Below are positions 3,704 through 46,600 of a stretch of DNA of 64,000 nt, in pieces. The notes under the pieces are model-generated. The model worked only from the letters and a program-made list of their open reading frames with translations, was not told the DNA's origin and did not search any database. Origin of the DNA: Octopus vulgaris (lineage: Eukaryota). The position numbers were made by a program, and so were the translations under genes. The first letter of the stretch is position 1. The number at the start of each line of letters is the position of its first letter. Where the stretch lies: contig OX597820.1 of the NCBI GenBank assembly GCA_951406725.2, positions 26,040,001 through 26,104,000 on the forward strand, in the 5' to 3' direction.

Positions 3704-3935
3704 TTAAGTGAATTGAATGGTTTTCATGTTAGTTATTAACCATGGCTTCTGTGTTTCTGTTGAGAGTACATTTTGGTAGTTGTGCTCTCAAATGGGAATT
3801 CAGTTTTAGACTGAAGTCTTACATACAAATGCCGATATTTGGCAACTGTATTGATTGATATATGTAGAATAGTTGGAAGGGTTATTGTCTCTCGCTTAAA
3901 ATTTATTTCTCTTAAATCTTCACTTTTTCACAGAC

Positions 3936-4166
3936 ATGGCAGGAAATATTGGTTATGAAGATGGACACCCCAACATAAATTCAATTGGGCATGCTAAACC
4001 ACCATTAAGACGTCAGCCTTCGTATTATACTCCAGACATGGAAGATCGGATGCGACGACGTTTGAAGTTCCATTTTATGGACCCCATAGAAAAATTAAAA
4101 GCCAAAAAACGAATACCATGGAAGATGTTGTTACAAGTGGTGAAAATTATTTTGGTAACAATACAG
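3936..4166 (+). CDS. MCOLN: TRPML coding exon 1 (MAGN...VTIQ; PI(3,5)P2-binding basic region and start of S1)
   Basis: Acceptor ttttcacag ends 3933, ATG 3936, donor CAG|GTAAGT after 4166. An upstream exon (UTR or short coding) is implied but not located. Confidence 0.95.
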
Positions 4167-8800: not shown

Positions 8801-9227
8801 ATCAAATCAGGTAAGTTACTAATTTGCATGTTAGAGAGAGAGAGAATGTAATATTTGTAATGTCTTGGGAAAGTGTCTCCTGCTATAATCCCAAATCAAC
8901 CAAACCTTTATGAATAGATGTGGTAGATGGAAATGGATAGAAGCCCATTGTGTGTAATACCCTTTAACATCCATTTTCCACGTTGGCATGGGTTAGACGG
9001 TTTGACCAGAGCTGCACCAGGCTCCTGTTGGTTGTTTTGGCTTGGTTTCTATGACCTGGATGCTCTTCCTAACACCAATCACTTTTACTGAACATACTGG
9101 GTGCCTTTGGCGTTAGGAAGGGCATCCAGCTGTAGAAACTCTGCCAGATCAGATTGGAGTCTGGTTTGCCAGACCTCAGTCAAATCGTCCAACCCATGCT
9201 AGCATGGAAAGCGGACGTTAAATGATG

Positions 9228-24200: not shown

Positions 24201-27200
24201 ATGCAATCATACACATGCACAAATACATATAAAATAATAATAATAATAATAATAATAATTGTGTACAGTGCTCAGGTGCACTACAACTCATCTAAAGTGT
24301 ATATATAATCAGGTGAAGTTTCGGCGGATTTCGGAAAGCATGAGGGCCTTAAAAGATGCAGTGTCATGGCAGTCAACAACTGACGCAGGCAGTTTATTCC
24401 ATGCTTCAGCAACTCTGAGCGTGAAAAAATGTTTCCGAAAGTCATGGGAGCTGTAGGCTTCTACACAATTTCTGTATCAGTTTCCTCTAAGTCATTGATT
24501 AGCTCAAGACTAAGTAAAGGCACTGATCCAAGATGTCAGATACTTGGACCAAACCCTAAATTTAGATATCTGTATGCATATTTTTTTCTTGGTCATTAGG
24601 CTGCAATCATTCTGGAGGTACCACCTTGAAGAATTTTTAATTGAATGCATGAACCCCAGGACTTATTTTCCTTTTTTTTTTTTTAAGCCTAGTACTTACT
24701 GTCAGTCTCTTTTTCTGAACCACTAAGTTACAGGGACATAAATGCACCAGCACCAGTTGTCAAGCAGTGGTTGCACATGCACGCATGACGGGCTACTTTC
24801 AGTTATTTCTTTATTGTCCACAAGGGGCTAAACATAGAGGGGATAAACAAGAACAGACAAAGGGATTAAGTTGATTATATCGACCCCAGTGCATAACTTG
24901 TAGTTAGTTTATCAACCCCGAAAGGATGAATGGCAAAGTTGACCTTGGCGGAATTTGAACTCAGAACGTAACTGCAGACAAAATACTGCTAAGCATTTCG
25001 CCTGGCATGCTAACGTTTCTGCCAGCTCGCCGCCTTTCAGTTTCTGCCTACCACATTCACTCACTAGGCTTTGGTTGGCCTGAGGCTATAGAGGGCACTT
25101 GCCCAAGGTGCCACACAGTAGGACTGAACCATGAGCCATGTGGTTGGGAAGCAAGCTTCTTACCACACAGTCATGCCTGCATCTATGTATGTATTTATGT
25201 ATGTATACTTTTTCTTTTATTGGTGGCAGTCATTGGACTGCAGCAAGAGCGTTAAAGATTTTTAGGGAATTATATCACCTCCAGTACAATGTCTGGTTGT
25301 GAAGCAAGCTTCTTACCCACACAACCGTATCTGATTTAATGGATCTTGATACGAAAATGCAATTAGACAGTTACTTCAGGGGAGGTAACTCAGTAAGATA
25401 CTACTACCATAGGATGTTCCCGTTTGAATTTATTATATATGTTCACTCTCCACTGATATAAACATGCAATAGGCTTTCCCAGTTTCTACCTTCTAAATTA
25501 ACCTCGTAATTCATTGGTCAACGTCTTGATAGAAGATGCACACTTACCCGAGGTGCTACACAGAGAACTAGTTGAATTTGCTTTGTTCAAATATCTACTG
25601 TATAGCTTTTACACACACACACAGAGTGAGAGATAAATATATACCATATGGATAGTTCTGTGTTCTTTTCATGAAATTTTCAAATGTTTGCTTCATTTTA
25701 GAATGTACCCAATACATCCCAAAACTACGATCTCTGTGCCATTATGCTTGGCACAGGAAATCTCCTAAGTTGGATTGGTGTTCTCCGCTATCTTGGATTC
25801 TTCAAAAAATATAATGTAAGTTAAAAGCTTTTCACTTTATTTTCATGCAATTATCATTGTACTTGTCATAAATTTATCTTTTTTCCCCCAATCAAGAGGA
25901 AAAGCAGATACAAACGTCATTCAATGTTATGACTTCTTTTCCATGCTTGTTGCATGGGTTAAATCAGTGGTTCCCAAGCTAGCGTCTGTGGACCCCTGGT
26001 GGTCCATGAACTAATTTCAAAATTTCATATACATACACATACATAATGATAAACATATTAAAAGGGATCTGTCAGAAAACTCATTTAAATAAATGGGTTG
26101 GGAACCACTGGGTTAGATGTCATTGAGGTATTGTTTTACAACTGGATGCCCTACTTGTTGCTAACCCATTACTGTTAAGTAACAGGTCTCTTCATGTAAA
26201 TTCTAAAGGTGTGAAGCAAGTGGGTGATTTCCGATACCTAGCAGAACTTCCTATGTGCGGAAAATGTTGTAGACATGAGCAAGATAATGAACTTATTGTA
26301 CTCTGTGCACCTGAGTACTGTGTACACTATAATCATACACACACACACATTAATGCAATCACACACACACACACACACTAACGCAATCATACACACACAC
26401 ACACACTAACGCAATCATATGCGCACACACACACTAACGCAATCATATGCGCACACACACACTAACGCAATCATACGCGCACACACACACACTAACGCAA
26501 TCATACGCGCACACACACACTAACGCAATCATACGCGCGCACACACACACTAACGCAATCATACGCGCACACACACACACACTAACGCAATCATACGCGC
26601 ACACACACACTAACGCAATCATACGCACACACACCAATGCAATCATATGCACACACACTGACGCCATCATACATGCAGTGATTGTGTCAGTGTGTGCACT
26701 GACAAATTGAAATGACTGTCTTAATCTCTGGACAGATAAATGGTGGGTATGTAAGCTCTGAAGAGAATTCCCAATGAGAACTCAAACCAGTTTCGCCAAA
26801 ACTTTGTCTAGGGAGAATTTAAGACATTTGTTTACATTTTTTCCAGTGTATTTTATTACATATCACAGCAATTGCTAAAATCTAGTACTTCTTGCATAAG
26901 GAATATCCTATTACACATTTCCCTTACCCAAAATGTTTTCCTTAGTGCATAAATTATAATTTAGATATGCTGGGCTTACCAAACAGATAGGAGCAAGGAA
27001 AGCTTTATGAAATTCACAAATAGTCTTATTGTTTAAATCTATGCCAACTCTATCTAGCAGATATTTGACCAAAAACATTCCAGTTATGACAATCCCACCT
27101 TTTTAAGTATACGTAAGGGTACATTATTTTACTTCATGTGTCCTTACCTGATATAAGGTAATGGAATATGATAATGTTTTGTGAGACTGGTTGCTTTTTT

Positions 27201-30200
27201 AGCAGGTAGTGACTACATAGCTGCTACCTTGTTGACTTAGTATTTTACAGTGGTAAGGATGAGATCAAGTTTTGAAGTGGAATTAGTTATACAATGCTGC
27301 ATAATTTTATTTCTGTTTTCAGATTTTGATATTGACCCTCAAGAGAGCTGCACCAAATGTTTTACGTTTTCTTACTTGTGCTCTACTTATGTACTTTGGA
27401 TTTGTGTTTTGTGGTTGGGTTATATTAGGTCCTTATCATATAAAGGTAAGTAGACTTTATTGGTGAACACACCACAGCACACACCATACCACACACACAA
27501 CCCACCACACACCACGACACATATGTGCACGCACAACACATATATGCACGCACAACACATATATGCACGCACAACACATATATGCACGCACAACACATAT
27601 ATGCATGCACAACACATATATGCATGCACAACACATATATGCATGCACAACTCATATATGCACGCACAACACATATATGCACGCACAACACATATATGCA
27701 CGCACAACACATGTATGCATGCACAACACATGTATGCATGCACAACACATGTATGCATGCACAACACATGTATGCATGCACAACACACATGTGCACGCAC
27801 AACACACGTGCACGCACAACACATATGTGCACGCACAACACATATGTGCACGCATAACACATGTGCATGCACAATACATGCAAGGACGACACAAAAAATC
27901 CATGCACAACACATGCAAGCACGACACAAAAAGTGCACACATACACACAAATTGCACATGACACACAAAGCGAATGCACGACACACACACAAAGCGCACA
28001 CACGAGACACGCGCACACAAGACTCGCACGACATACAAGCACACACACACATGTGCATATAGACCCAAGTGCACGTATGCACAAGCACTGCATGCACACA
28101 CAAGCGCACATGCATGCACACACAACAAAGTAAACTCTCTGATGCTGGTGATATGTTGTACACAGTTCACTCTGTAATTTGGTTGGTGTTATAAAGGGCA
28201 TCTTGCCAGAGAAATCTGCCAACAATGGATTGAATGAACATGTGGTCCAGGAACTTTTCTATGAGGGCAGTGACTACAAATAAGAACTCTAAATTCTTTT
28301 TTCTCTATCTTTCTCAACCTGCAAGTGAATTAATTAGCATATTCTTTTCTGGATTATTATTATTAAAAAAGGTAGCGAGCTGGCAGAATTGTTAGCATGC
28401 TAAACAAAATGATTTCTCTTTTATCTCCTTTACTTGTTTCAGTCATTTGACTGCAGCCATGCTGGAGCACCACCTTTAGTCAAGCAAATGACTGAAACAA
28501 GTAAAGGAGATAAAAGAACTGCTAAGTTACAGGGACGCAAACACACCAGCATTGGTTGTTAAGCAATGTTGGGGGGGACAAACACAGACACACAAACATA
28601 TACACACACACACACACATATACATACATATACATATATATGACGGGCTTCTTTCAGTTTCCGTTTACCAAATCCACTCACAAGGCTTTTTGGTTGGCCC
28701 AAGGCTATAGTAGATGACACTTGCCCAAGGTTCTATGTAGTGGGATTGAACCTGGAACCATGTGATTGGTAAGCAAGCTACTTACCACACAGCCACTCCT
28801 GTGCCTTCGTAGCATTTCGTCTGCCTTTACCTTCTGAGTTCAAATTCTGCCAAGGTTGGCTTTGCCTTTCATCCTTTCAGAGTTGATTAAAATAAGGACC
28901 AGTTGAGCACTGGGGTCAACATAATTGACTTAACCCTACTCCAAAAATTGCTGTCCTTGTGCCAAAAATTTGAAACAATTAAATGTTAAGTATAACAAAA
29001 GTTGATTTTATTTCAGTTATTCTAGAATATTCAGTAAATTTACCACACACAAATATTATAAGCAATTGTACCATTTCTTTATTCTTGTTATTAATCTGAA
29101 CACTTTTGTTTTGTCTTTTCTACCAGTTCCGTCATTTGAGCACCACATCAGAATGTTTGTTTTCTTTAGTCAATGGTGATGATATGTTTGTGACTTTCTC
29201 TGCATTGCAAACCAACAACAGTTTCATTTGGTTTTACTCCCGTGTCTATCTTTACTGCTTTATTGGCATCTTCATCTATGTTGTGCTAAGTTTATTTATT
29301 GCTGTCATCATGGATTCTTATGAAACAATTAAGGTAAGAACTGCTATTTGTAGATATTTACCTTAATTTTTACATTTTTTTTTTGTTTTAATTGAGCTGC
29401 AGCTCTTGTACATTTGCATATAAAAAAAACAGTGTCTATTTTATCACAGAGCATTTATTGTTTCAATGCCCACTTTTGTATTCTTGCATGGATCGGATGG
29501 AAAATGTTGAGAGTGATTTCTCTATGCTTTGATCTTCTTTTCACCAACCCTCAGTTTCCAAGTGAGGTAATAGTCTCCTGAACTATCAGACAATAAATAG
29601 CCCAGACATAGTTACAAGACATTTTGTTTACATAAATCTCAACATGTCAAAATGTGTCAAGAAGGCTGAACATTCTTTCCCAGTTGACTGCAGACATATG
29701 ACACTGTATTGAAAAAAAAAAAAAGGCTGCAGTTTTGTTTACAGACACCAAACACTTGTAAGGACACGGGAAATACACACACTAATACAATCATACACAC
29801 ACACTAACAATCATGTACACACACACTCTGACACTATCACATACTCACACTAACACCAACACAATCACATACACACACTCCACAATCACATACACACACA
29901 CTCCACAATCACATACACACACACTCCACAATCACATACACACACACTCCACAATCACATACACACACACTAACACAATCATACACTAACACTAACACAA
30001 TCATACACACACGCACACTAATGCAATCATGTACACACACGCACACTAATGCAATCATGTACACACACGCACAATCATGTATACACACGCACACAAGCAC
30101 AATCATGTATACACACACACAAATAATCGTACACGCACCCACAATCGTACACGCACCCACAATCGTACACGCACCCACAATCATGTATACACACCCACAA

Positions 30201-33200
30201 TCGCATACACACACACACACAATCGTATACACACACATTAACATACTCGTACACACATGCACTAGCCCATAAATATATGCATGCATACACATGCACAAAT
30301 ACACACACATGCATGTACATATGCACGCATGCACACACACAGCCTTCATTTTCTGCTTACCAGTTTTACTCCTAAGCATTTGATTGACCCATGATTATTG
30401 TATACAACATTAGCCGACTGTCCTCTCAGTGGGACTGAATCCCCCTACCATGTAGTTTCTGAACCAAACAGCTATGCTTATACATATACCACAGCACAAT
30501 TTGAGGATCCCTGCTGTAGCTTGAAGGGTAATAAATCCTAAGTCTAAATCTTTCATCTGACAATGCCTCACCCTAAGTAAGCTATGTTCTTTTAGTCTTC
30601 CGGATTCACTGAACATATGTAAATACTAAATAAATTTAAAACTAATATATGCAGGCATGTCTTTGTGGTAAGTACATGGTTCTGGGTTCAGTCCCACTGT
30701 GTGGCACCTATGGCAAGTATCTTCTACTATAGCCTCAGACCAACCAAAGCCTTATGAGTGGATTTGGTAGGCGGAAACTGAAAGAAGCCTGTCATACATC
30801 TATATGTATCTGTTTGTCCTCACACCTTCGCTTGACAACTGATGTTGGTGTGTTTACATCCTTGTAACTTAGTGGTTTGGCAAATGAGACTGATAGAATA
30901 AGTACTTGGCTTACAAAGAATAAGTCCTTAGGTCGATTTGTTTGACTAAAGGTGGTGCTCCAGAATGGCTGCAGTCAAATGACTGAAACATGTAAAAGAA
31001 TATAGATAGAAAATCTTGTGAACAAAAATGCAAATTATGTGAATACCATCCAATGAGAGCTTCATTCTGCTAGAAACGGCAGCCAAATCATCTAAAATAA
31101 CACCTTACCATCTTGAAAAACAAGATGGTATAATAATGCATAATACTTTTGACCATAGGCTGGCTCACTTGAAGTTCACCCTTACATTTTATTGTCATCA
31201 CCAATGCCATCTTCATCATTTTATCTCTGTTTTCCATACTGGTCAACAAGATTCAATAAATTGGAAGGCCACATGAATTCTGAAACCCATCCAATGCTTG
31301 CTAACAGAGAAAATGTTTATAAAATTGAAGAACGAAAAAATAATTCTCAATGAAATTCTTTCACAAATATTTTTTTTTCTCTTTTGAACTTTTTTTTAGC
31401 ATTATTATGAAAATGGTTTCCCACGCAGTGAATTATTTGAGTTCATAGATGAATGTACTGATCCTCCTCACTCAGAGATTTATCGCCAAGAACTACGGGG
31501 TTGGGACTGCAGCACTGTGTTTTGTTTCTGTTGTAAAAAGTAAGTATTTATTGCTTTGAACATCTCCATTTAACGACTGTTTTCCATGCTGGCATAGGTT
31601 AGATGTTTTGATTGAAAATCTGATTTGGCAAGGTTTCTATAGCTGGATGCCAACCACTCCGAGAGTGTAGTGGGTGTTTTTTTACTATAGCGTCACATTT
31701 GGCTTGACATAGACGCAGGAGTGGCTGTGTGGTAAGTAGCTTGCTTACCAACCACATGGTTCCGGGTTCAGTCCCACTGCATGGCAACTTGAGCAAGTGT
31801 CTTCTACTATAGCCTCAAGCCAACCAAAGCCTTGTAAGTGGATTTGGTAGACAAACTGAAGGAAGCCTGTCGTATATATATATATATCATCATCATCGTT
31901 TAATGTCTGCTTTCCATGCTAGTATGGGTTGTATGTGTGTGTATATGTTTGTGTGTGTGTGTTCCCCATCAGCATCGCTTGACAACCGATACTGGTGTGT
32001 TTACATCCCCCATAAGTAGCGGTTCGGCAAAAGAGACTGATAGAATAAGTACTAGGCTTACAAAGAATAAGTCCTGGAGTCGATTTGCTCGACTAAAGGC
32101 GGTGCTCCAGCATGGCCGCAGTCAAAATGACTAAAACAAGTAAAAGAGGTCTACACAAGCATGGTGTATCACCAAATGTCTCGGTCACCTGTCATTGTCT
32201 CCATGAGGCCTGATGCTTAAATGGTGCCTTTTACGTGCCACCGGCATGGGTGCTAGTCAGATGGCACTGGCATTGGCATTGTCCACAACTATGATTTCAC
32301 TTGGCTCGACAGGTCTACACAAGCACAGCATATTGCCCCACTGTTGGAAGGGTGCTTTTTATGTGCTAGTTATACGACACTGGCATCAGCCTTGACTATG
32401 ATCTCACTTCGCTTGACAGGTCTTCTCAAGCACAGTATATTGCCTTAGTCACTTGTCATTGCCTCCATGAGGCCCAAAATTCTTAATCTTTTTATCAGTC
32501 CTCTACACGCATTTCTCTTATTGGAAGCCAACATTTCAGTTGTGTTTAAAATCTGCAATGATTGCTTGATTAGTGACTAGACTGCAAACCAAGAAAGGGA
32601 GCCTTTACGTGTTGGCTCAATCCACTAGCAATAACAGCCAAATCTCCCTCAAATCATACCATATTGAAGGGCAACATTTATCTAATGTTGCCATCGTTAA
32701 ATTAAGCCTTAGAAAATAAACAAGATGATAATGGCTTGAGTGCTTGTTACGCTACGTTTGCTCGATCAGGTGTGACTTAGATCAAACAACAATCACTAAG
32801 TGAACTCGTCCGTCTTGCTAGCTGTGTGAGGTTGCCATTAAACAAGGGACATAACTTTGTCAGATATTCACTCTAATAACATGTTTTACCTCATTGTTGT
32901 ATACTTGGTCTTAGAATGAATACGTAAGCATATGACGTGGGTACAACAGGGTATGGATATGTGTTGGAGACATGATGAATCTCTCGAGATGTCATAAAAC
33001 ATTGTTTTAGCCTAATCTACGTTTATCCCTAACTACAGTAAGTTATAGGGTAGTTGAACTAGACAGATTATGTGATTAACAGATCAAGTTTAGTAAATAA
33101 AGATTCTATGTCTACGGTAAACTTTTTATGTTGCTTTATATTAACACATAAAGCGCGACGGGTCCTGATAGAGGCCGTCAGGCCACGATCGTGGCCCAGA

Positions 33201-33817
33201 TAGATGCATGTAATTTATGGGCGTTTGTTAATTCAACTAATGACTTTTCAGATGATGTAAAACTTGCCACCAAGATGATTTTTTTCTCTGCTGTTCTTGA
33301 CCCTTGGCTATCTTTTCTGCTTCTCTCAAGTTGTATCCTTGCTTCTTGCAGCTTCCATTCAGATTTTGCTGCACCACATCATGTCTCCCTGAGAAAAGGC
33401 CTTTCTCTCCCAGGTCTTGTTAGTTTTGAATTGTCATTGAAGCATCTGTAACCATTTTTTTTTTTACTAGGTGTGGGTTTTTAGCCTGACACAAGTCCAT
33501 TTTCCTCTCTGGAAAGAGGTGATTCTTATTTGTCTGGTCTTTATCCTTTGACCTATTCGGCTCCCCACTTGGAGCTTGTATTCAGCTAGCACATGAACCC
33601 CCACCCCTACTCCCAACAAGGACTTGACCTTGTGGTGAAACACATTCTAACCATTTATTAAAAAAAAAGCATGTCAGTTAACAGAACTTTCAAATCTATG
33701 CATTAAAAAAAAAAAGACATTGTTACTTATAGTAGTTTTTTAAAAATCTTTTTTTAAATTTATTTTTTTAGTCGAAATCCAGAGGAACTTGAGGAATCCA
33801 CACGTTTGATTGGCTGA
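3936..33817 (+). CDS. MCOLN: Mucolipin / TRPML endolysosomal cation channel; 13 coding exons, 1767 nt, 588 aa (whole gene span)
   Basis: Manual splicing of 13 GT-AG exons gives one open frame (intron phases 0,0,1,2,0,1,0,0,0,0,0,2). Hallmarks: polybasic [20 protein letters not shown], luminal ITFDN, S4 [12 protein letters not shown]5 [11 protein letters not shown], pore [15 protein letters not shown]6 [19 protein letters not shown], Cys cluster CFCC. Paralogue number not assignable (invertebrate gene). Confidence 0.96.
4685..5064 (-). mobile_element. Young full-length tRNA-SINE (family F1); related copy 18670-18932(+)
   Basis: A-box tggcccagtag and B-box gtttcgattccc on the minus strand; CpGs retained; flanking repeat tttcatcag at 4675-4683 and 5067-5075. 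Confidence 0.8.
8619..8810 (+). CDS. MCOLN: TRPML coding exon 2 (LCIFG...VSNQ)
   Basis: tttccag| ... CAG|GTAAGT; 192 nt; contains the [12 protein letters not shown] motif. Confidence 0.95.
9265..9572 (+). mobile_element. tRNA-SINE family F2 (MetaSINE-like core); related copies ~23546-24020(+), 39465-39740(-), 54645-54890(+)
   Basis: Head tggcttggtggttaggg plus core gtgttgtgtccttgagcaag..cacgttgctccagtccactcagctg shared between copies; tails differ. Confidence 0.75.
10810..11157 (-). mobile_element. SINE/LINE-tail family C with (ATG)n tail; other copies ~8960-9230, 13564-13835, 49445-49660, 57130-57270
   Basis: Recurrent catcgtttaacg..ttccatgctagcatgggttggacgg..ctggatgcccttcctaacgccaacc. Confidence 0.75.
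11336..11489 (+). CDS. MCOLN: TRPML coding exon 3 ([12 protein letters not shown]...NPRLIR)
   Basis: ttttattacag| ... CGCA|GTAAGT; 154 nt; ends phase 1. Confidence 0.9.
13000..13099 (+). CDS. MCOLN: TRPML coding exon 4 (TCANVTQ...LSLDR)
   Basis: tattttcag| ... CG|GTGAGG; 100 nt; phases 1 and 2 fit both neighbouring exons. Confidence 0.85.
14384..14480 (+). CDS. MCOLN: TRPML coding exon 5 (LLKIELNF...CFLMNVS)
   Basis: ttctctag| ... TCA|GTGAGT; 97 nt. Confidence 0.9.
15068..15286 (-). mobile_element. Intact piggyBac-type MITE family D
   Basis: Perfect 12-bp TIR ccctttagtgtt/aacactaaaggg; TTAA at 15064-15067 and 15287-15290. Confidence 0.9.
15618..15708 (+). CDS. MCOLN: TRPML coding exon 6 ([12 protein letters not shown]...)
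   Basis: tttgaacag| ... G|GTGAGT; 91 nt; ITFDN motif. Confidence 0.93.
15872..16451 (-). mobile_element. Hammerhead-bearing non-autonomous retroelement (retrozyme / Penelope pLTR-like): 349-bp unit, partial second unit and inverted segment, 12-bp TSD
   Basis: taaagtgatggtatgttgtca starts at 15870 and 16219; 16348-16454 is an inverted copy of 16162-16270; direct repeat tttaaactatta at 15860-15871 and 16452-16463. Confidence 0.75.
16024..16095 (-). ncRNA. Type I minimal hammerhead ribozyme motif (predicted GUC cleavage between 16043 and 16042)
   Basis: Minus strand reads CAGA-CUGAUGA-U-GAG-CAAUAA-CUC-U-GAAA-CUAG-UC-UCUG. Stem I CAGA/UCUG is extended by CCA/UGG and AGCAAA/UUUGCU; stem III is the palindrome ACUAGU. 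The 10.1-11.1 pair is U-U (non-canonical). Confidence 0.7.
17206..17697 (-). mobile_element. RTE (BovB-like) LINE 3' fragment
   Basis: [38 protein letters not shown]...[31 protein letters not shown], then a (GAT)n-like tail. Confidence 0.9.
18008..18129 (+). CDS. MCOLN: TRPML coding exon 7 (S2: [23 protein letters not shown])
   Basis: tttcttcag| ... CAT|GTAAGT; 122 nt. Confidence 0.93.
19544..19693 (+). CDS. MCOLN: TRPML coding exon 8 (S3: [24 protein letters not shown])
   Basis: Acceptor ttttacacaaaag|, donor CGA|GTAAGT; 150 nt. Confidence 0.92.
20180..20386 (+). mobile_element. MITE family D inserted into an older piggyBac-type MITE (~20110-20452)
   Basis: D body ending ctaaaggg-TTAA, flanked by the halves of another TTAA-type element. 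Confidence 0.65.
20860..21790 (+). mobile_element. Highly decayed CRE-like (restriction-like endonuclease) non-LTR retrotransposon, 3' part
   Basis: Broken frames give [18 protein letters not shown]...HTILND (CCHC-knuckle-like), [16 protein letters not shown] (RPD motif), [14 protein letters not shown] and RLEIAIHKN, in the expected order. Confidence 0.6.
23785..24005 (-). mobile_element. Intact MITE family E inserted in the tail of an F2 SINE
   Basis: TTAA at 23781-23784 and 24006-24009; TIR ccctttcgttac / gtaacaaaaggg. Confidence 0.88.
24235..24453 (-). mobile_element. Young CR1 LINE 3' end with (TTA)n tail
   Basis: Minus translation [35 protein letters not shown]...*, followed by a (TTA)n tail. 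Confidence 0.85.
25702..25815 (+). CDS. MCOLN: TRPML coding exon 9 (S4: [30 protein letters not shown])
   Basis: cattttag| ... AAT|GTAAGT; 114 nt. Confidence 0.95.
26330..26670. repeat. CA-rich minisatellite, ~23-29-bp unit (CA)n-ctaacgcaatcatacgcg
   Basis: About 12 visible tandem units. Confidence 0.9.
27323..27445 (+). CDS. MCOLN: TRPML coding exon 10 (S5: [41 protein letters not shown])
   Basis: gttttcag| ... AAG|GTAAGT; 123 nt. The ORF track shows the wrong frame here. Confidence 0.96.
27515..27880. repeat. 19-bp minisatellite atatgcacgcacaacacat, decaying to ~28125
   Basis: Visible tandem units; source of the Cys/Val- and His/Thr-rich spurious ORFs. Confidence 0.92.
29127..29333 (+). 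CDS. MCOLN: TRPML coding exon 11 (pore helix, NGDD filter, S6)
   Basis: ttctaccag| ... AAG|GTAAGA; 207 nt. Confidence 0.97.
29775..30340. repeat. CA-rich minisatellite (18-25-bp units, e.g. cacacacactccacaatcacata)
   Basis: Visible tandem units sharing the caatcat core with the 26330-26670 array. Confidence 0.88.
31400..31539 (+). CDS. MCOLN: TRPML coding exon 12 ([19 protein letters not shown]...CFCCK)
   Basis: tttttttag| ... AA|GTAAGT; 140 nt; ends phase 2. Confidence 0.93.
31713..32147 (+). mobile_element. tRNA-SINE family B; other copies ~4195-4545, 5445-5810, 8145-8520, 11920-12265, 24590-25180(-), 28415-28805(-), 30651-31000, 49680-50015, 55515-55825(-), 60990-61295(-)
   Basis: A-box tggctgtgtggt, B-box gggttcagtccc, core ggcaccttgggcaagtgtcttctactatagcc..ggatttggtagacggaaactgaaagaagcc, internal microsatellite, then one of two tails. 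Confidence 0.85.
33772..33817 (+). CDS. MCOLN: TRPML terminal coding exon 13 (N)[14 protein letters not shown]
   Basis: tattttttag|; phase 2 fits exon 12; ends TGA TAA; encodes the [DE]xxxL[LI] motif ESTRLI. Confidence 0.85.
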
Positions 33818-36555
33818 TAAAAAACCAGAAGATAGCTATAACTGGGTGAAAATAACAGAAATATGGTGTAGAGTTAAAGATTTTTTTTTTCTGTCTTTTT
33901 TGTTGATAATTTCCTTCCAAGGAACCAAACCAAACCAAACCGACAGAATTTCTTTAAAATAGAAAATTGTAAATTTTTCTTGACCTAATTTATTGTAAAA
34001 TAGTTTTTTTCATTTTCTTGCAGAGTTTAATTTTTCAAAGTGAATTTTTTTTATAGCGAAAAATAATTTAAATAGAAAAGAAAAGCTGACAGCTACCTCT
34101 TGGAAAATGTTTGGTAATAACTCTAGAAAAAGTAACTGAGTGCATCCAACCACAAATACGTGTATATTTGTAATGTTCCTATATTCTAAATAGGTATGTG
34201 AATTCACTATTTGCTACATCATATTCGTGCCTCTATGTACTTCTTGCCATATTAGCAAAGAGTATTGTGCACTTATTTGTAGGGATTTAGTAGAAATGTA
34301 CACACACGCAGTTGGTTTGCTCTCCACTCATTACTTTGGTATTACGAAGGGGATATATACACAAATATGCCATTTTGTAGTCATTATTTGTATGATGAAC
34401 ACTGTTAGAATTTATATATGAATTTTTAATTTATAATTTCCCCCCTCCCCACTGCCATCTGTTATAATACTCAATACATCTCTTATATACTCAGTGGAAG
34501 CAAATTCTATATTTGGTAAAATTTGTTTCAAATAACTGTGGTTATACAGGAAACCCCCTGTCTGCAAACAGAAGGTGATTTAAATGATGTGTGTATTTGA
34601 ATGAACTGCACCAGTCTCCAAATATTTTTATTTGGGAATATACAAATGATATATTGTGTTCTAAAAATTGTTATCACCCTTGTTAACTCCTGTGCAGGAT
34701 CGGAGACTGTTCACTACATGTAATAGTATGCATACATCACATTGCACTATATAACTATTACTACTGCTATGCTATAACAGCCTTTATGAAAACCTAGACA
34801 TCCACATTTCAATTTACTAGTCAGTGCATAGTACAATAACAGGAGCTTACTCATTGCAATACATCAATACATAACCTGTGTACATGTAACACACACACGT
34901 ACAACTGTTGGTTCAGTTGATTGTGTCCTTTCCATTGCAAATGCATGATGTTGTCAGTGAGAAATCATTACTTTTATTTGTGAACTGCTTGAGAATGTAC
35001 ATAGATTTACTAGAACTCTTATCAGTACTGCAATATTACATACATAAATGACATATCACTATGGCATTATTATATGCACTGCATTGAAATACATACTACA
35101 GCATGAAAATCATGCTGCTCCACACTGCCACATTGTTTTTCTTCAAGCTATTCCAACTTGTCTGTAATATGCTGTGCTTATAGCATCACAACATTGGAAT
35201 GCATCCACCTCATCACATGATACACTGCATTGTTAGTGCCAAAAACTGCAATTATATATCTATCTTCATAAAAGTCTATATGTAATGTTAATCTTCAGTC
35301 TTTATTGTTACTCCTTACTAATGTACTCAGGTATAACTATCACAGACAAGAGGTGTATAGTGACAACATGTATTCAATGACAGGAATTCATTACCTGGTT
35401 TCAATTCCCAGTCTCATTTCATTCATATCAGTGTGTTCACAGAAGATATGTTTTCATCTCATTTCCCTGTCCCTCAAAAATATCCCAGTGATGTTGGTCA
35501 GGCTACCTGCCAATTGAATGATACCGCCAATTAAAAAAATAAACTCTTGGAGACATAATTTAGTTGTGAAATTACAAATAGATTTGTTCTTTAAATGATT
35601 CTGTCCATAATTTGGCAGTGCCACAGCTTCAGTATATAGTGTTTACTTTTTTCCAAACTACACCGGCCAAATCTTGCAGTTGACCTTTGATCTCTTCAGG
35701 ACTGATAAAATTAGTTGGTTATGCCTTTGCTATTAAAATTGCATGGCTTTGTGCCAATGAGAAATAAGTATTACCACTCTTAGTAAATTGCTTGTGTATG
35801 TACATAAAACACCTACATTAAATATATTTTCATATCTCCGTCCAGCTTATACCAGAATGGAAAAGTAGGTATAGATCTTACATTGTTTTTGACTATGAGC
35901 ATCTGAGATTAGACTCCAGTTGCTACTTATTTTTATGTCTGTGATTACTTGCTATTGTCTATATATCAATCAAACCAGTTCTAAGATGTGGCTCAATTGA
36001 TCACCCTGAAGTATGTGCTGTTTGGCTTCTCTTTAGCTCCTGGTGAGCTGAGCTTTTGACTGGAGTTTTTGAGTTCAGCAGTCATATTTTGAACTAAATA
36101 ACAGTTGTGTAGTTTACTGGATTATAGTGACAAGATTTGCATTTTCCATAAGGAGAATATAATTAATTTTTCATCCCCATAGATCACATATTTCATGCAT
36201 AATTAAGGGATTTATTATCTTTTTGTTTTTGAATTGTGCTGATTGATAGACCGGTTTCACCATGAAGAAAATAAACTGAGCCTATTTTAACAAATGTTTT
36301 TCTTTGTGGTTGTTGATTTTCATGTAAAAAGAAAACAATTATATAAATTATCACTTAGACATTTCTTTCATGTAATATTAATTTACTGAAATTGTTATGA
36401 GATTTATTCGATATGAAAATATAAATAAAAGCCATTAAAAAATCGTGTATGAATAATTTTTTTTTTGTGGTGGGAGAATGTAAATATCATGTGATTCTGA
36501 CTTCCACTACATCTCATACTGTCATTTTGGAACAATAAAATCAGATTGAATAAAG
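33818..36555 (+). other. Probable TRPML 3' UTR with poly(A) signals
   Basis: ~2.7 kb without the SINEs/microsatellites that fill the introns; AATAAA at 36270, 36424, 36534 and 36549; repeats resume at ~36585. Confidence 0.6.
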
Positions 36556-37032
36556 TTTCTTTTTGACTTAGTTCTTTAGAAGTGTCTGTCTGTCTGTCTG
36601 TCTGTCTGTCTTTGTGACCACAACATAACTAAATGGTTAAGTTTGTTTTGCAATCATAAGGTTTGGTATCCTTGACAAAAGGTATAAAGTAAAATTGTAT
36701 GGAAACTGTATGGAAGTCAACAGGATGGATTGTACCTGGTAAGGCCAAGGTATGGCCTTGCCATACACATTATCTAGGGTATCTTCAGCCACGTATTAAT
36801 TCAGTTTGTTAAACAACTGAATCCTCATTGTTGAAACAGACCCATTCAGACTCTTACAGGGATCTAAATATCTTTTATGTACACTTTACATCAGTTGGAG
36901 TGTTTTGTTCATCAAAAGCAAGAAAGTTGACTTAAACAATTGTATTTTTGTTTTTTTTTATTACATCTCATTTCACACATTAGGTTTTTTTAATGTTTCA
37001 ATCAGTTAAAATAAGGTTTCATAAAAGTAAAC

Positions 37033-37063
<31 letters not shown>

Positions 37064-38379
37064 ACCAGCAAATGAACCCTGGTAAAGTATTTATTCCAAA
37101 AATATTTCTTTAAAACATTTATTACTTGCAACAAATAAGTACTATATAATATCATTGTTTTTGTAAGTGGCAGGGAGCACATTTTTGTGGGTTGCCCCTG
37201 GCACGGTTTACTCTAGCTGTGCCACTGCTAGAGACCAAACTAATCAAAAAAGGGAACAGATATAAATATTGAAATTTTTTTTATATCTAATAATTAATAG
37301 CCTGAAAAATTATTTTTTTTAATGGAATTATTCTTTGACAATTATAGTAATTGAATAATATCCATGCCTCTACAGGTATCACAGTAAAAGTAAACTACTT
37401 TGAAGCTCAGTCTATTACCCTGCTTTGATTCAAGTTCTAATAATTTACTGTCAAATATTCCACTTCTCTTCCATTATAAATTTATAGAACAAGGTTACAT
37501 ACCCAACATAGTACCCTTAGTAATGCCATCCTTATCAGGACTGCCACTTTACATTGGCAAATAGACTTTTTTGCGGAAGTACTGTTACAACTTATTTCTA
37601 GCTCAGATATTTAAAACTAATTGTTTTTCTCTTAATTAGAAATAATTAAAATTATCCTAGTTTTCCAGCAAGTATGGGGAACAACTCCAGGCATGTTTTA
37701 ATTTTATAAGACTTCATCAGAAAAGCAAAGACTCCACCATTACTTGCTAAAGTAATGAGTGTAAATGTACCAGACCATATACAAATATGCTTGAAAATAA
37801 GCATAGGGTATTTTCTGTTTAACACACTTTTTATTGAAACTTCCAACACAGATGCCAATTATGAAAATTGCAACCACGTTTTCGTAGGAATTTAAGTTTC
37901 AAACTCAAAAGACTGAAATTTTAGCCTATCAGATTTATCGATTCTCAACATCCTATCCAGCCTATTATGGAAGTTGTATATGTTCCCATTGCAACCAACT
38001 AAAACCATGTTAGGGTTTATGGTGCATTGCAAAATTTCTTTGCAAATGTTAACCTGTTTTCTTTTATTAAATATCCTCATTTTTATGTTTTGTAATGTTT
38101 TTGTTAATTTCTCATAAAAAAATAATTAAAAAATTGCCATTTTCAGTACTTTGGGTATCATAATAATAATAATCCTATTATAGGCACAAGGCCTTAAATT
38201 TAGGGGAGGGGGATAGTCGATGACATTGACCCCAGCACTCAACTGGTACTTAATTTATCAATCCCGAAAGGATGAAAGGTAAAGTTGACCTCGGTGGAAT
38301 TTGAACTCGGAACATAGTGACAGGTGAAATACTGCTAAATATTTAATCCAGCGTGCTAACGACTCTGCTAGCTTGCCGC

Positions 38380-38413
<34 letters not shown>

Positions 38414-39160
38414 ATAATAATGGTTTCAAATTTTCGCACAAGGCTTACAACTTCAAGGGAAGGAGTAAGCTGATTAAATCGACCCCCCCCCCCAACACCA
38501 AGAGGACGAAAAGCAAAGTCAACTCGGGTAGCATTTGAACTCACAGCATAAAGATGAAGAAAATGATGCAAAGCATCTTGCGCTTTCCTTAAAATTGTTA
38601 CGGTGTGTACAGGATACATGAGTCTGACAAAAAATTATCAAAAATAAGAAATCAATTTAAAAAAAAAAAAAACAGGCCAGAAAAGCAGGAGAGGTTTAGT
38701 ATATAAGACAAGTAGAGTAGAAAATATTGTATATTTACTAGTTATGACCTATGTCTTATTTGAAGAAGTCTAAAATTAAAATGCCTATTATAAGGCAGTA
38801 TAACAGTCTCTAGAAAGGAAGATTCAAATATAGTTTTTAGTTTGGATACCTCAGTGATTTTGTGTGAGAATGCCAACCATCACGGCACCCCCTGCATGTT
38901 AATTTCTCAACATTTGCATGTATATTATATATACATTATGTATATATAATGCTTTCTCTCCAAGAATTTGAACTACAGTTTTTGCCTCTGTAGGAATGTA
39001 CTACTCTATGACTCACGTCGGTGGACAGGGAGAATAATAGATCTCATTTGTATTTTTGGATTCGCTAGTACTAGGTGTCTGGCATGGTTTGTCCGATGTT
39101 ACAGATATCGGACGGGTATGTTTGATTCTTAGTATTTTCAAATCTAAATCAGAAGAAATC

Positions 39161-39222
39161 TCTGAGCTGATGAAGGAAAAGTGGCGTTTTACCCACGAAT
39201 CCAGAAACAGGCTGTCCTCGGG
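39161..39222 (+). ncRNA. Second type I hammerhead ribozyme-like motif (predicted GUC cleavage after 39216)
   Basis: CUGAG-CUGAUGA-A-GGA-aaa-GUGG-loop-CCAC-gaa-UCC-A-GAAA-CAGGCUG-UC-CUCGG. Stems I and II pair; stem III is near-palindromic (ACAGGCUGU); 10.1-11.1 is A-A. Confidence 0.6.
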
Positions 39223-42200
39223 TATCTTATATGGATGTGATCTTTCATTGTTTTTCCCTTATACCTATGTGAGTTATTTTCTGAGTATGCATTGTCTGGA
39301 GACTTTTATTTGCAGTTGAAGAAATAGCCAAATTTTTGGCTACTATTTCTGAAAAGTTCGGTGTGTGGTAAAGTGAATTTTTACTTTACCATATTTTTAT
39401 AAATTAATACTTCTTATATATATATATATATATATATAAATGTTTGTATACCAAGTCATATAAAGGGTAAAGACCCCCTTCGGTCATGAATGACCATGGG
39501 ATTGCACCTAGAAAGTTACCCTCCTAGACACAAGTCCGGGCAAGGTTGTTTATGGAAGACCAGCAGTCGCCCATGCATAACGACCTCCCTCTCCACGCCA
39601 CCAGTGTTATCCAAGGGAAAGACAAAGGTCGATACAGCTTGGCACCTGTGACGTCGCAACTTATTTCTACAGTTGAGTGAGCTGGAGCAACGTGAAATAA
39701 AGTGCCTTGCTCAAGAACACAACACGCAGCCCGGTCCGGGTCATATACATACATGCATATGTTCGTGAAATTTATGGATTAAAAAAAAACGTGGCTATGA
39801 ACTGTCGGCTGCACATTTGATGTGAACGATAATTCTAGTTAGACAAAGATCGGTGTACGTTTTAAATAGTTTGTATTTGTTTGAAGTAGAAGTTAAACGT
39901 TGTTCTGTTTACCAATTTTCTTCTACAAAAACATCTAAGTTAGATTACCTCGAAAAACTTGCTTACCACTTGTTTGCATGAAGCAGCTCTCAACACAAGT
40001 CTTGGAATAAGGCTCCACCTTCATATCGTAATCACTTGCCCGGCGCCAATTGCCTCTACTACACAATTTCTCGTACTTACGGAATTATATCGACAAACAT
40101 TTTTGATATGATTTTAATTCTTTTTAGAGAAAAAAAGTTATCCATGATCTTTAAACTGAAAAGTCAATATTAGATTCTGCATAGCAGTACTCGTTCACCA
40201 AGGGAGATAACTCACAAATACACACTCCAATTCTCTGATTTGCTGAGACAGTGATTAAAACGTGTAGCATAAAGCAAATGATCAAATAAATCTTCATCTG
40301 AATAGCGTATCAGTCTATCGCAGTTGAAATTTCCAGATCATCTAGTACCTATTCCGTATGATATGTATCACTCAATAACCAGAATTTCAGTATATTTTCA
40401 TATATAAAAAAATGGTGTATATTATAAAAGAAATTGCAAGGACTGTCTGTCTTATATGAACCTCGACAGGTTATTTATTTCTTTTTACCATTTCTCCAAA
40501 TATCACAGTATATACATTCCTTTTAACATAGCCTTCTTCCTCTATGAAAATATTACGAGGTTCTGGCTGTGACAGATGTAAGACAAAAACCTGAAAAGAA
40601 ACGCTGAAGATTTTACGTCACTAAAGAATACTTTGGTGTAGATTTATGTAGCATAGAAATAGAAACACATTTTTCGCTAAATAAAATAGATTATCGTATG
40701 TAGTTATCTTTAAGCTAACGAATTAGTGTTAATATTTATACCTACTTAGATTTAGACGGTCTCGACCGATGGACCGCTGTTGATTTCGACATACATGTGC
40801 GTGCCCCCACTCTCGATTTTGTTTCCTCATAACTTTTAGAAAAATGTATTTTTTTTTTAATGAAAATTTCAAGTTTCATTTTTTAAATATGCATGTGATG
40901 TGTGTAAGTATCTATGTGTGCGCGCCGGCATTTAAAAAAATTTTTTTTTTTTTACAAATTAAGTTCCGATATAATCGTAAATCTACAACCATCTGAAAGA
41001 TATTAGTAAAATAGCTCTTTAGTAATATTCATTTGTCGGAAAGTTATGCAACATCAAAGTCAGCTCGTGTGAATTATCCGAAACTCCTTTCCCCACCTCC
41101 GAAAAAAAAAAATTACAACGAATTCCTTTATAATCTGAGAAAATATCCATTTTTCTGAAAGTTATGAGAAAAGAAAGCTATGGGAGGGCAGGCTGTGTAG
41201 GTATACCGTGAATTCTTTGGTTGGTTGTCTGGTAATCCCTTTGATACTATGAAGCGTTACCGAAATAACTTGCAGGTAAATCAAATTTACGATTAGTGAA
41301 TTGTCATCCAATATCACAAGGACATTTTGAAGAGGCTATGTATAACTTCAGAAGCTAGAAAAAAAAGACAAAAAAAACCCACAAAAACAAAACGAAAATA
41401 CTTGTATGAATACGGAATAAAATTTTAAAAAATCAAAATAATCTTCATATAGATTATTTACACGAGATATTAGTTGATGTGTTTAAGATAAAATTATTGC
41501 AGTACTTATGTTATCATTTAGATGGCAACAACCCGCGACGCTCTTTTTGCTATCTTACGTTCCGAGTTCAAATTCTACCGAGGTCGATTTTGCCTCTCAT
41601 CCTGTCGGAGTCGATAAAATAAGTACAAGTGGAGTACTGGGATCGATGTACTCGACTAACCTACGCCCTCAAAATTGCTGGCCTTGTACCAAAATTTAAA
41701 ATCATTTTCGTTGCGTAGAATAATTTATTTTTCTATTCAGATATAATTATTGCTTAATATAAATTATTGGCTTTCCTCTTGTATAGGTATGATATTATCA
41801 ACAGCTTAAACCTTATTCCTTCAGATGAGAATGTTTAAAGATTGTATATTATTGCGATCGCGCAAAAAAGAAAAAAAAAATGAATAAATAAATAAACACT
41901 TTTCAGCGGCGGAGTATTTTAGCACTCACCTGCTTCCTTTTCCTAACTTTTCAGTTTTGATTTTCTCTTCAAAATATTTTTAGATCTATGTTTTAAACAT
42001 CCGAAATTATGATTCTTCGAAAATATCATGCAGCTTAAATCAGAAAGTTCTTTTTTGAAAGAAAGTCAAAACTGAAAAACTACCGTAAGGGGGCGGAGAA
42101 ACTGCCTCTTTCCCCCGCCCACTTTTTTTTTTTTTACAAATTGATTATCTACGATACGTAAACATATTCGAAGAAATTAGGGATTTTGGCGCACTAGATA

Positions 42201-42989
42201 ACGTCCCACTATATTCTGTAAGAACGTCCAAAGTATTATTAATGAGAATGTTTTTTCTCTCCCATCATCTATATTAATTCTTTATAGTTATCTTCAAAAT
42301 AAAACTGTGAAACTTCAAATCTAGTCAAATATTCTTTATTGTTGTCACTTTCTATCGCATTATCATCTGCAGACGCATGCTTCAGTACTATAGCGGCTGT
42401 AGCTCTGCTACAGTTCCGTTACTGGTACACCACACGAGGAATTAGTAAATTCAAATAAAAATCATTTTCTTTCTTTCTTTTTTTTTTTTTTTCTTGTCCG
42501 GAAAATGAAGTGAAAGAGGAGCTATCGAAGGTATCTTTTAAGCTGGATGCGTTTAGCAACATTTATTTATTTTTGTTAGGGAAGTTCATGGTCACTTCTG
42601 TATTTCAATTAAATTTTCCTACGTTACCTTGACTGGCAACTTTTTTGACTTCTCACACGCTGCACCAATGAAACATAAAGGGGTGGAAATGTGTATTGAC
42701 ATTAACTTTGAACCGCCAAGCAATATTTCATGTTGAAGATTAATACAAATTACAACAGAAAACAATTTTTTCATAAATACAAACTAGGGAAGGTATCACC
42801 GTCTTATCGTAATTTTTCGGTTTTTACTTTTTCTAATTTTTTTTTTCAGATCTACGTTCGAAAAACAAATCATTAATTTTAGTTGTATCTAGCAAAGATG
42901 AAGAAAAGAAGAATATATATACCATTTAAAAGACGCAAAAGAAAAATGCTTTATAAGCCCGCTTAATAATGAGCAAGAGACAACCCAAC

Positions 42990-43600
42990 AAACTGCTCGA
43001 AATATTCGGCCACGCTACCACCGCTTATCTCTCCTGACACAAAAATATTCTTAACATCGCACCTCACACGAATGGCTGTGTCTTCTCTTCAGACAAAACG
43101 ATACACCAGTCCCCGCAAAGCTCAGATGAAGTATGCAATGGAATATTGCTCTTTCAAGTGGGATGGTGCTACTATTTCACAAATGGATATTCTAGACTGC
43201 ATTTAGAAAAGGGCCACCCGACTGACAAGCATAGTCTCACATAAGCACGGCCTTTGATCCACTTGTGCGCTGTCTCATCTCTCTGTCTTAAATAAAGGTT
43301 AAGGTCGCTCGACTCATCGGTTACTACAATGACCTCAGTTCCTCGGATATGACTGAGCTCCTGCCACCTTTACTCAGACATTCACGACCCACTCCTCTCT
43401 TCTTTCATATTCCTAATTCCTTCAGATCCTCACTAACCACTACGTCCAGTTCTTCCTTCCTAGAACATCGGCTCCCTAGTATCCTCTTTTCTGCTTATGT
43501 CTTTTCCGCATGTATTAACGTGCAAAGGTTCGAGAGGAACATTAATGACATCGATCTGCTTACCCTAAAGAGGTTCTGTGAGGGCCTTGGAAACTGACTT
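42990..43600 (+). mobile_element. Decayed CR1/L2-group LINE 3' fragment
   Basis: KAQMKYAMEYCSFKWDGATISQMDILDCI*KRATRL ... NHYVQFFLPRTSA ... VQRFERNIN. Confidence 0.8.
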
Positions 43601-46600
43601 TTCTGTTAGTTATACCAAATAAATATATGCATTAATGATAGAAACTGAATCAAGAATTAAAAATAGGAAAACCTTCGCTCCATTTTCTAACTATAACAGC
43701 ATTTAGCTATAAGTTAGAGTTGGGATATGGTTTCGCATTAAAATAATTCCACCGCACAACAGACGTTGATATTTTACCCATACTAAGCAAAAACGTCATC
43801 AGTTTAAAATAACTTCTCCAGTGAAGAACATTTTAAAAATAAAATCACTTGATCGATAGAGAAATAAAATAACGAGAAAATTATGTCTAAATACTGATTT
43901 AAAATTTGAATAATTAATTTACGGTTAGTATGTGTTCATTCTAACGTTTTTTAAACTACAAACTAAACGCGCGCACACTCACAGCATCTATTTTATATAT
44001 ATAAGTTAGCTACCTTACGTGGTTTCGTTTTTCGTTCTCCGTAAGAACTAGTTTTAGTGTAACTGAAATAATTATTTGACACAAGGGAGATAAGATCATT
44101 CTAACAAGTAAACATCTGGAAGTGTTCAAGCTTTTGAATATTTTCGTATAAATATTATTATAATTTAAGCTTACAGAACTTTTTAAAATAAATTTAAATA
44201 TTTCACACATATATAAATATATTCAAAGGGTTTATTTTCAATTATCATAAAAAATGTGTGAATATTTTTTTTGATTCCTCATTAATAATTAACGCGTAAT
44301 TTTAATAGATATTTTATTTTTAGTTGTTTTAAAGGTGTTTACAACAATTTTATCAATTTTTATTTCAAAAGCTTTTAGAATTTTGAAGACAATTTTAGTA
44401 TAAAAGATAAATAAAGGTTAAGGTCGCTCGACTGATCGGTTTCTCAGCAGATAAAAGCTTATGTCGTCATGGTTGTTTTGAGCTAAGATAGCATTGATTC
44501 AGCACACATCCCATCAAAGGCACTCCAGCCATGAAAATTCAATCTCTTTAGGGCTATGTAAGATTATACAGTCCAGCGTGTCCTTTCTTTTTCCAAGACA
44601 GCGTGTAAAATAATATAGATTTGGCTGCTATTTCTAGCAAATCGAGCGACCACTTATAGGCTCGCACGTTGGTTCGTTCTTTATTGTATCGTGTAAACAA
44701 TTGACGTGTTTATCTCCCCTTAAGACCACGGACCATCTGGGCGGAGAGGGAGAGGGGGAGAGAAACCGACAACAAAAAGAGAGGGAGAGAGAAAGAGTGA
44801 GTGGACGAGAAAGAGAAACAAAAAGAGAGAAGCTGAGAATATAAAGCGGGAAGGCAGCAAAATATTACAAAGATCGCCGAATAATAAATAAGTGTATTGG
44901 CATATTAATGTCGATTTTGTTGATGTTTATTGTCTCTTCAACACATCTATTGCAATAGGTTTCATATGAATCATAACAATGGATGGAATTTGATCTGTTG
45001 TGAATGCAAAGAATTTTTTTTCTTCTGCAAATGTTTTTTTTTTCTTTGGAAGAAGAAATTGTTATTTATTATAAATTAATATACGCATGTATATTTTTTC
45101 GCTATTATAAGAAATAAATATTTAGTCGCGTAAGCAGAAATGAAAATTTGGTAGTAGTTTTAACTAAACAGAAGCGATTATTTTGTTGAATTAAAACAAG
45201 ATGTTTTAATATTTCTATGAAATGAATGAAAGATTGATTATTCTAAAATTAAAAGCCTTCGTAAAATTATTTCGCTCTTCTATTAAAAAAAAGGCTTTAA
45301 TTGTTGATATTTTAAATATTTAAAAATCGTGAAAATATTATTTATTTGGTATCTATTTCATCAGCTTTGACAAATCAATGAAAATTTATAATATTCTTTA
45401 ACTAAAGGCTTTATTTTTTTACTTATAAATACAATATATCTTTGTCCAAAAGTGTTACTAATACATAAAAAAGTCCTTTATCTTTTAGGCATATTTCTTT
45501 GAATATTGTTAGAGGTATGAGGTAAATTTGATATTAGGAAAAATTTATAGAAAATTAAATTTTCTCACAAAGTTGAAAGATAAAAAATTTATTCTAAAGT
45601 TTCTGTTGGTAATTTTTCAAATGCAAAAACATTTTAAATTAGCATAAGGAACACTAACGCTTGAAAAATTCCGTCACAAATATATACTTTGCAAATAGAA
45701 ACTGTCAGGGTTTAATCATCCCAGTTTGAAACTTTCATTTACTCTCAACATAATTTCTGCTATGTTATTTCTCTCCTCTACTCATATGTTTTTCCCTGCT
45801 CTATTCTTTTTTTTTAGAGCATATTTGGTATTTTACACATTGTTATACGAATCCCATGAAGTTTTTTTTCTCTCTTCAAAATCAAATGGTTGATAAAAAT
45901 TTCTTTTTTTAATATTATCATATTCTCTGCGTTTTTTAGTTTTCGAGGCCACATGAAAGCCGAAATGTTTACCTTGTTAAAAGCGAAGTTGTTTTCGTAA
46001 ACTAAAAAAGAAACGGGACATTCTTAATTATGATTTATTTATTACAAATAACCTTATCTAATATTTTTAAATAATTGTTCAACTTCATCATTAGCGAGTC
46101 TTCGATGATAGTTATCCCCACCAGAACCAGGACAAAGTCGAATGCGATGATGAAAGAAGGCCATTATTTAGAAGCCACTGTCTCATTTTCATGTTCTGAT
46201 AGACTCTTCTTATCAACATTCGTTACACTTGGGTAGTTAATGTCCATGCTTTTTCACGTTAATTATGAATATAATAAAATATTTGGCGAATCCTACTGAA
46301 TTGATACAAATATAGTGGATACTAACTATAACGTCTACGCATTACTGGTTCCTTTTAGAATTGAAACACATTCTGTAAGAATTCCACTCACTTTTCACTA
46401 ATAAAAAGTATTGAAGATCGAAAGTTTTCGATATTGTAAAGAAATAGTGAACACCAGAGAGCTGGATTGATATTAGGAAGCATCTACTGTGCCTTTCCCA
46501 TTATTTCAAACGAATCCACCAAACATTTTTGAAACTATATATATATATAATTAACATCAGTAAAACATGATTATTAACTAACCAAGTATATCAAATGTTA

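Follow-up and report, generated by a model that had tools for sequence, protein, structure and literature searches.

We analyzed a 64,000-nucleotide (nt) stretch of the Octopus vulgaris genome (assembly GCA_951406725.2, contig OX597820.1, positions 26,040,001 to 26,104,000 of the forward strand), called the window below, in which a gene for a mucolipin (TRPML), a lysosomal ion channel, occupies positions 3936-33817 of the plus strand. The last intron of this gene, intron 12, has an in-frame stop codon inside its donor, and a transcript left unspliced there would encode a protein ending in CCKK, as placental TRPML3 does. It was originally proposed that this one donor toggles between two trafficking types of the channel. 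The results described here indicate that intron 12 of Octopus is probably an ordinary last intron that is constitutively spliced. The CCKK end of placental TRPML3 is itself likely to be a fixed read-through of a donor at the corresponding place, as judged from protein sequences. Since read-through at this site always stops at the same residue number, and both ends carry Lys there, the Octopus-human match is therefore one of convergence at a shared intron position and reflects no shared switch.

The stop codon at the intron 12 donor is automatic

Exon 12 (31400-31539), which encodes the cytosolic tail with its Cys cluster according to the sequence, the gene model and the alignment with TRPML3, ends in phase 2 with TGT TGT AAA AA and is followed by the donor GTAAGT (31540-31545). 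The elements named in the original prediction were all confirmed in the sequence. Without splicing, the frame stops at TAA (31541-31543) and gives a 574-residue product ending CCKK-stop; splicing on to 33772 gives 588 residues with the motif ESTRLI; and AATAAA occurs at 32715-32720 and 33096-33101.

Nine of the 12 donors in the gene start with GTAA and three with GTGA, and each of these is an instant stop if the intron is in phase 2. The TAA at the intron 12 donor is thus automatic, because it follows from a phase-2 donor that starts with GTAA. The last Lys of CCKK is equally forced, because the AA of a split Asn codon is completed by the G of the donor. Intron 4 is the sole other phase-2 intron of the gene (the model places exon 4 at 13000-13099), and there read-through gives R and then an immediate stop. 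A stop at a phase-2 GTAA or GTGA donor is therefore a general trap for readers of sequence.

A regulated retention switch would be expected to have a weak donor, and intron 12 does not have one. GTAAGT is found in 8 of the 12 introns, intron 12 included, so that the intronic part of this donor is at full consensus, and the acceptor (AG at 33770-33771) is preceded by a long T tract. Two alternative acceptors within intron 12, at 33424 and 33471, were rejected; both are weaker and would give short tails without any motif.

The poly(A) signals do not distinguish the intron either. There are 2 AATAAA hexamers in the 2232 nt of intron 12 (31540-33771), or 0.90 per kilobase (kb), vs 23 in the 28,115 nt of all 12 introns, or 0.82 per kb, and in a first-order Markov simulation the probability of finding at least 2 in intron 12 was 0.23. 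The signal in intron 12 is thus not above background. Dispersed repeats cover 41% of the intron, the first beginning 21 nt past the donor, while its last 1 kb is repeat-free; repeat cover of the other introns ranges from 0 to 55%.

The spliced tail is conserved in cephalopods and other molluscs

Orthologues were taken from the best 120 of 399 matches to exon 11. Unnamed rows, fragments without the C terminus, fused models and rows without a CC anchor were dropped before counting, and the rows include several isoforms per species, so that the counts here and below are not independent. The coding part of exon 13 (33772-33817) contains ESTRLI at 33794-33811 and the stop codon TGA at 33815-33817, and the tail it encodes is the same as that of O. 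bimaculoides mucolipin-3 isoform X1. All 4 cephalopod rows have the spliced tail with the dileucine motif. Two of the four are unnamed proteins from contigs of 1.3 and 2.5 kb that span many exons, and these rows therefore look transcript-derived. No retained (read-through) form was found among the 4 cephalopod proteins, which were compared without the 15 sequences clustered with Octopus at 90% identity. Decapods have CCQR at the junction, vs CCKK on Octopus read-through, so a decapod read-through peptide would not end in CCKK; chance by itself would lead one to expect a stop in their donors too.

Among other named molluscs (21 rows, 19 with a CC anchor), the canonical tail motif was present in 14 of 19, and 0 of 19 ended two residues past the last CC (position CC+2). 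The Lottia model, which has no CC anchor, stops at the equivalent place, and the pearl-oyster, Nucella and old Pacific-oyster ends differ from those of their relatives. ESTRLI, a candidate sorting signal, fits the consensus [DE]xxxL[LI] given in PMC8946281, lies in a predicted cytosolic terminus and is conserved in orthologues. N termini were located for 14 of 22 mollusc rows and none of them has the canonical motif; the tail motif is thus likely to be the main dileucine signal of the molluscan channel.

A switch of motif type between lineages is suggested by the tails of P0010, P0013, P0021, P0024, P0027, P0065 and unnamed insect-like rows. In bivalves the tail often reads EYTSLL, in which a tyrosine-type YxxL overlaps the dileucine, and many of the unnamed insect-like rows, as well as the named midge Contarinia, have a tyrosine-type motif at the end instead (GYETL or GYESL).

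The short end of TRPML3 is largely restricted to placentals and many euteleosts

Vertebrate TRPML3 rows were drawn from the best 120 of 1631 and the best 120 of 1521 matches, which range from sharks to placentals, and their ends were scored as residues past the last CC. The end lies at CC+2 in 48 of 50 placental rows (KK in 44) and in 50 of 93 anchored euteleost rows, 48 of these in G or R. It lies there in 3 of 66 anchored rows from other vertebrates (sharks and rays, bichir, paddlefish, bowfin, coelacanth, basal teleosts, amphibians, reptiles, birds, monotremes and marsupials), none of them as KK. KK-stop ends accordingly number 44/50 in placentals, 0/93 in euteleosts and 0/66 in the remainder, and CCKK-stop is not a trait of the whole TRPML3 family. 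A tail is retained in TRPML3 of sharks, bichir, gar, bowfin, coelacanth, reptiles, birds and monotremes.

The solved TRPML3 chain 6aye ends in CCCKK, as the original prediction had it for the human protein. The further proposal, that vertebrate TRPML3 may owe its end to fixed read-through of this ancestral donor, finds support at the protein level in placentals and, separately, in many euteleosts, but not in vertebrates generally, most of which keep the tail. In mouse, the last exon of Trpml3 is given as exon 12, which contains codon 531 (PMC4270466); on that description the counterpart of Octopus exon 12 is terminal in mouse.

The canonical [DE]xxxL[LI] was found in the tail of 0 of 209 anchored TRPML3 rows, although bichir has a near-motif. 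The signal was therefore likely lost before the tail was. Bird TRPML2 has a tail with a canonical dileucine.

Two further observations concern these rows. An N-terminal [DE]xxxLL (of the ESEPLL and DREQLL types) is present in 55 of 89 scored euteleost TRPML3 rows (P0277-P0388) and in one shark, and is absent from the sequences inspected for bowfin, gar, bichir, paddlefish, coelacanth, eel, birds and mammals. Euteleosts may have regained a lysosomal signal in this form. We considered that it might compensate for the short euteleost end and rejected the idea for lack of correlation, as the motif accompanies 32 of 56 short ends vs 23 of 33 longer ones. In addition, several bird and sturgeon entries are fused TRPML3-TRPML2 gene models (P0269-P0274); the two genes lie in tandem, which such models mirror.

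Signs of a probable ancestral intron two residues after the Cys pair

We infer a vertebrate intron at the CC+2 site from four protein-level signs. The TRPML3 isoforms of the green turtle part at the junction, with KR-stop, KRS-stop and KRSIGH-stop ends (P0431, P0433, P0436, P0437); among the cases seen, they are the most promising candidates for genuine alternative processing at the donor. Squamate TRPML3 ends in KRS-stop or continues as KRLV plus further residues. Most euteleost rows stop after the G or R, while 12 run on, with a C-x-x-K-x type tail in 11 (e.g., G-CRKKM) and CK in 1.

The run-on residues themselves are the remaining sign. They are RYV in a turtle TRPML1 model, RSV in the pearl oyster and in a squirrel TRPML2 model, where the run-on is located one residue further along than in the others, and RLV in three squamate TRPML3 rows. 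These triplets permit phase-2 donors at 5 of 6 consensus bases, vs 1.2% of 600 random triplets. Human MCOLN1 presumably has a phase-2 intron in codon 569.

The run-on end of duck TRPML3 admits a perfect donor in phase 1 alone, one base 5' of the phase-2 site suggested for reptiles (P0486, P0448), and intron sliding in birds is possible.

A proposed history of the tail

In the reading we favor, the 588-residue Octopus channel would be the regular product of the gene. By analogy with TRPML1, its Cys cluster is predicted to be acylated (palmitoylated) and ESTRLI to drive adaptor-mediated endolysosomal sorting. The intron site two residues past the Cys pair would be ancestral, and the tail-bearing state is likely ancestral as well. 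In vertebrate TRPML3 the dileucine would have decayed first, likely leaving a small last exon that was dispensable. This short exon would then have been lost by donor read-through at least twice, once in placentals (xK-stop) and once in euteleosts (xG-stop or xR-stop).

Several observations weigh against this history or against constitutive splicing in Octopus. Position -1 of the intron 12 donor (AAA followed by GTAAGT) carries A, which two further donors also have there, and both intronic AATAAA hexamers lie outside detected repeats. Retention of a last intron leaves no junction downstream, so that the retained transcript would likely escape nonsense-mediated decay. A 574-residue Octopus isoform would fall unseen within the 15-member cluster, and the Lottia, pearl-oyster and old Pacific-oyster ends could be true isoforms, or the product of missed last exons. 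On the vertebrate side, the placental end could be a nonsense change that followed precise loss of the intron, and the turtle annotations vary at the junction within one species. The run-on of duck TRPML3 fits phase 1 only (6/6), and hawksbill and the old oyster model reach 4/6 and 3/6, all in a codon test whose cases were selected after the ends had been seen.

Alternatives to constitutive splicing

Splicing noise, in the form of low-level, unregulated retention of the last intron, would yield a little 574-residue protein that has no selected role; we consider this alternative unlikely. The read-through frame ends cleanly, its transcript would probably escape decay, and annotations end at this site in Lottia, the tailed frog and green turtle X3. 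On the other hand, gene predictors that overlook a 46-nt coding exon give just such ends, and the cephalopod proteins examined include no retained form.

The toggle of the original prediction is a still more doubtful account. Retention of intron 12, or polyadenylation within it, would give a tail-less channel of the surface or early endosome beside a dileucine-sorted lysosomal one. A single TRPML is listed for most cephalopods in the survey PMC13402157. Apart from the C-terminal motif, no canonical dileucine was found in mollusc termini, and losing that motif would therefore matter. The read-through product would retain the Cys cluster and equal a viable placental end, and the TRPML3 annotations of turtle, squamates and fish vary at the same site. 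If the toggle were true, splicing in one invertebrate gene would do the work of the vertebrate paralogues. Against it, the stop and the AATAAA hexamers are at chance level, the donor is consensus, repeats start 21 nt into the intron, 4/4 cephalopod proteins are spliced and decapods do not keep the KK.

It is similarly doubtful that the last mucolipin donor is an ancient hybrid internal/terminal junction, still a switch in invertebrates with one gene and later fixed as read-through repeatedly in TRPML3; if true, it would make the splice switch older than the division of labor among the TRPML paralogues.

Structure and identity of the Octopus gene

The gene has 13 coding exons, with canonical AG/GT at 12 of 12 introns, and the exon boundaries of the gene model match a tblastn of the O. 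bimaculoides protein against the window. Annotations already exist for both the gene and the spliced product. Exon 1 (coding part 3936-4166) opens with the ATG at 3936, and exon 2 (8619-8810) starts the extracytosolic domain, with a Pfam MCLN_ECD match (E 1.2e-5) that is a fragment under the cut-off. The gene model and tblastn agree on exons 3 (11336-11489), 5 (14384-14480), 6 (15618-15708), 7 (18008-18129), 8 (19544-19693), 9 (25702-25815) and 10 (27323-27445). Exon 11 (29127-29333), to which the pore and the last transmembrane helix are assigned by homology, matches 11 PDB mucolipin sequences at E of about 1e-22 to 1e-23, as well as the Pfam families Ion_trans and PKD_channel. CFCC at 31523-31534, in exon 12, aligns with the Cys cluster of the TRPML1 and TRPML3 chains.

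O. bimaculoides mucolipin-3 isoform X1 (626 residues) is identical to the window protein at 575 of 588 positions over its residues 39-626, and 0 of the 13 differences fall in the tail. This relative (P0002, 98% identical) carries PF21381 and PF08016, with hits to 11 PDB mucolipin sequences (E <= 2.3e-114). From the extracytosolic domain, the polycystin-type channel domain and the C-terminal Cys cluster, the window protein belongs to the TRPML/mucolipin channels, a family characterized by a PI(3,5)P2-gated endolysosomal cation conductance. Isoform X1 has 38 extra N-terminal residues, for which tblastn found no credible match in the window. Since these residues are unmatched and the ATG stands two bases after an AG acceptor (3914-3938), a further upstream exon is likely, located before position 1 or non-coding here. 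The cephalopod TRP survey lists the O. bimaculoides mucolipin as XP_014776211.1 in its Table 1 and gives TRPML as 588 residues in O. vulgaris and O. maya and 640 in O. sinensis (PMC13402157).

In a tree of 23 rows, the window protein falls in a mollusc clade (99/99), outside the 100/100 clade of all three vertebrate paralogues. This position is in line with a triplication of TRPML later than the split of jawless fish, as stated in PMC7312350. The Octopus gene is thus neither a member of the vertebrate TRPML3 subfamily nor a specific TRPML1 orthologue, and the name mucolipin-3 denotes best-hit similarity and no orthology.

The 2.8 kb downstream of the exon 13 stop resembles a 3' untranslated region (UTR), which would cover 33818-36600. 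It is repeat-free (0% repeat cover), has clustered AATAAA at 35538, 36270, 36424, 36534 and 36549, and then a TGTC run. The neighboring bins are also repeat-poor (4-13%), so the lack of repeats is modest evidence for a UTR.

The region at 33400-46000 of the window is repeat-poor well beyond the putative UTR (0-13% per bin vs about 30% elsewhere) and may hold a neighboring gene or a regulatory region. A Pfam scan of 102 open reading frames, mostly picked from the 178 outside the gene, found no family. Within intron 6, two short open reading frames on the minus strand (17254-17610) gave no Pfam match at E 0.001; they seem to resemble the C-terminal end of proteins of long interspersed nuclear element (LINE)-type retroelements.

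Comparison with known systems

The closest relative of the window protein, O. bimaculoides X1, has the same spliced tail and differs in its 38 additional N-terminal residues. Vertebrate TRPML1 resembles the Octopus channel in that a Cys cluster is followed by a short tail from the last exon, and the turtle model suggests an intron at the same CC+2 phase-2 site. Cysteines 565-567 of TRPML1 are described as S-acylated and needed for internalization, with acylation promoting endocytosis, and C549-551 of TRPML3 as S-acylated as well (PMC10903462). Targeting sequences are reported at both the N and C termini of TRPML1 (PMC12799467); unlike TRPML1, the molluscan proteins have no canonical motif in the N termini located.

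Placental TRPML3 is like the Octopus read-through form, ending CC-x-K-stop where the Octopus codon is split. In mouse TRPML3 the matching exon is the last and the end is fixed; the Octopus gene has a further coding exon, which is conserved. The tail, lacking the dileucine, persists in most non-placental TRPML3. Dileucine motifs are described as setting the localization of TRPML1 and TRPML2, with TRPML3 depending on heteromers (PMC8001254). The comparison of molluscs, which keep the dileucine tail, with TRPML3, which was probably shortened, points to C-terminal dileucine sorting as the ancestral state and to tail-less TRPML3 trafficking as derived.

In the titles and abstract openings searched, with most subscription papers outside that scope, we found no report of a mucolipin C-terminal splice switch or of loss of the TRPML3 last exon. 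The same scope yielded no account of a TRPML3 end that likely lies at an ancestral donor, was shortened separately in placentals and euteleosts and had lost its dileucine earlier.

Hybrid internal/terminal exons and retention of terminal introns are known kinds of event. The switch proposed for Octopus would be of the hybrid internal/terminal exon kind, which the turtle and fish TRPML3 annotations resemble. Intron 12 of the Octopus gene is unlike that kind, having neither a weak donor nor an enriched poly(A) signal.

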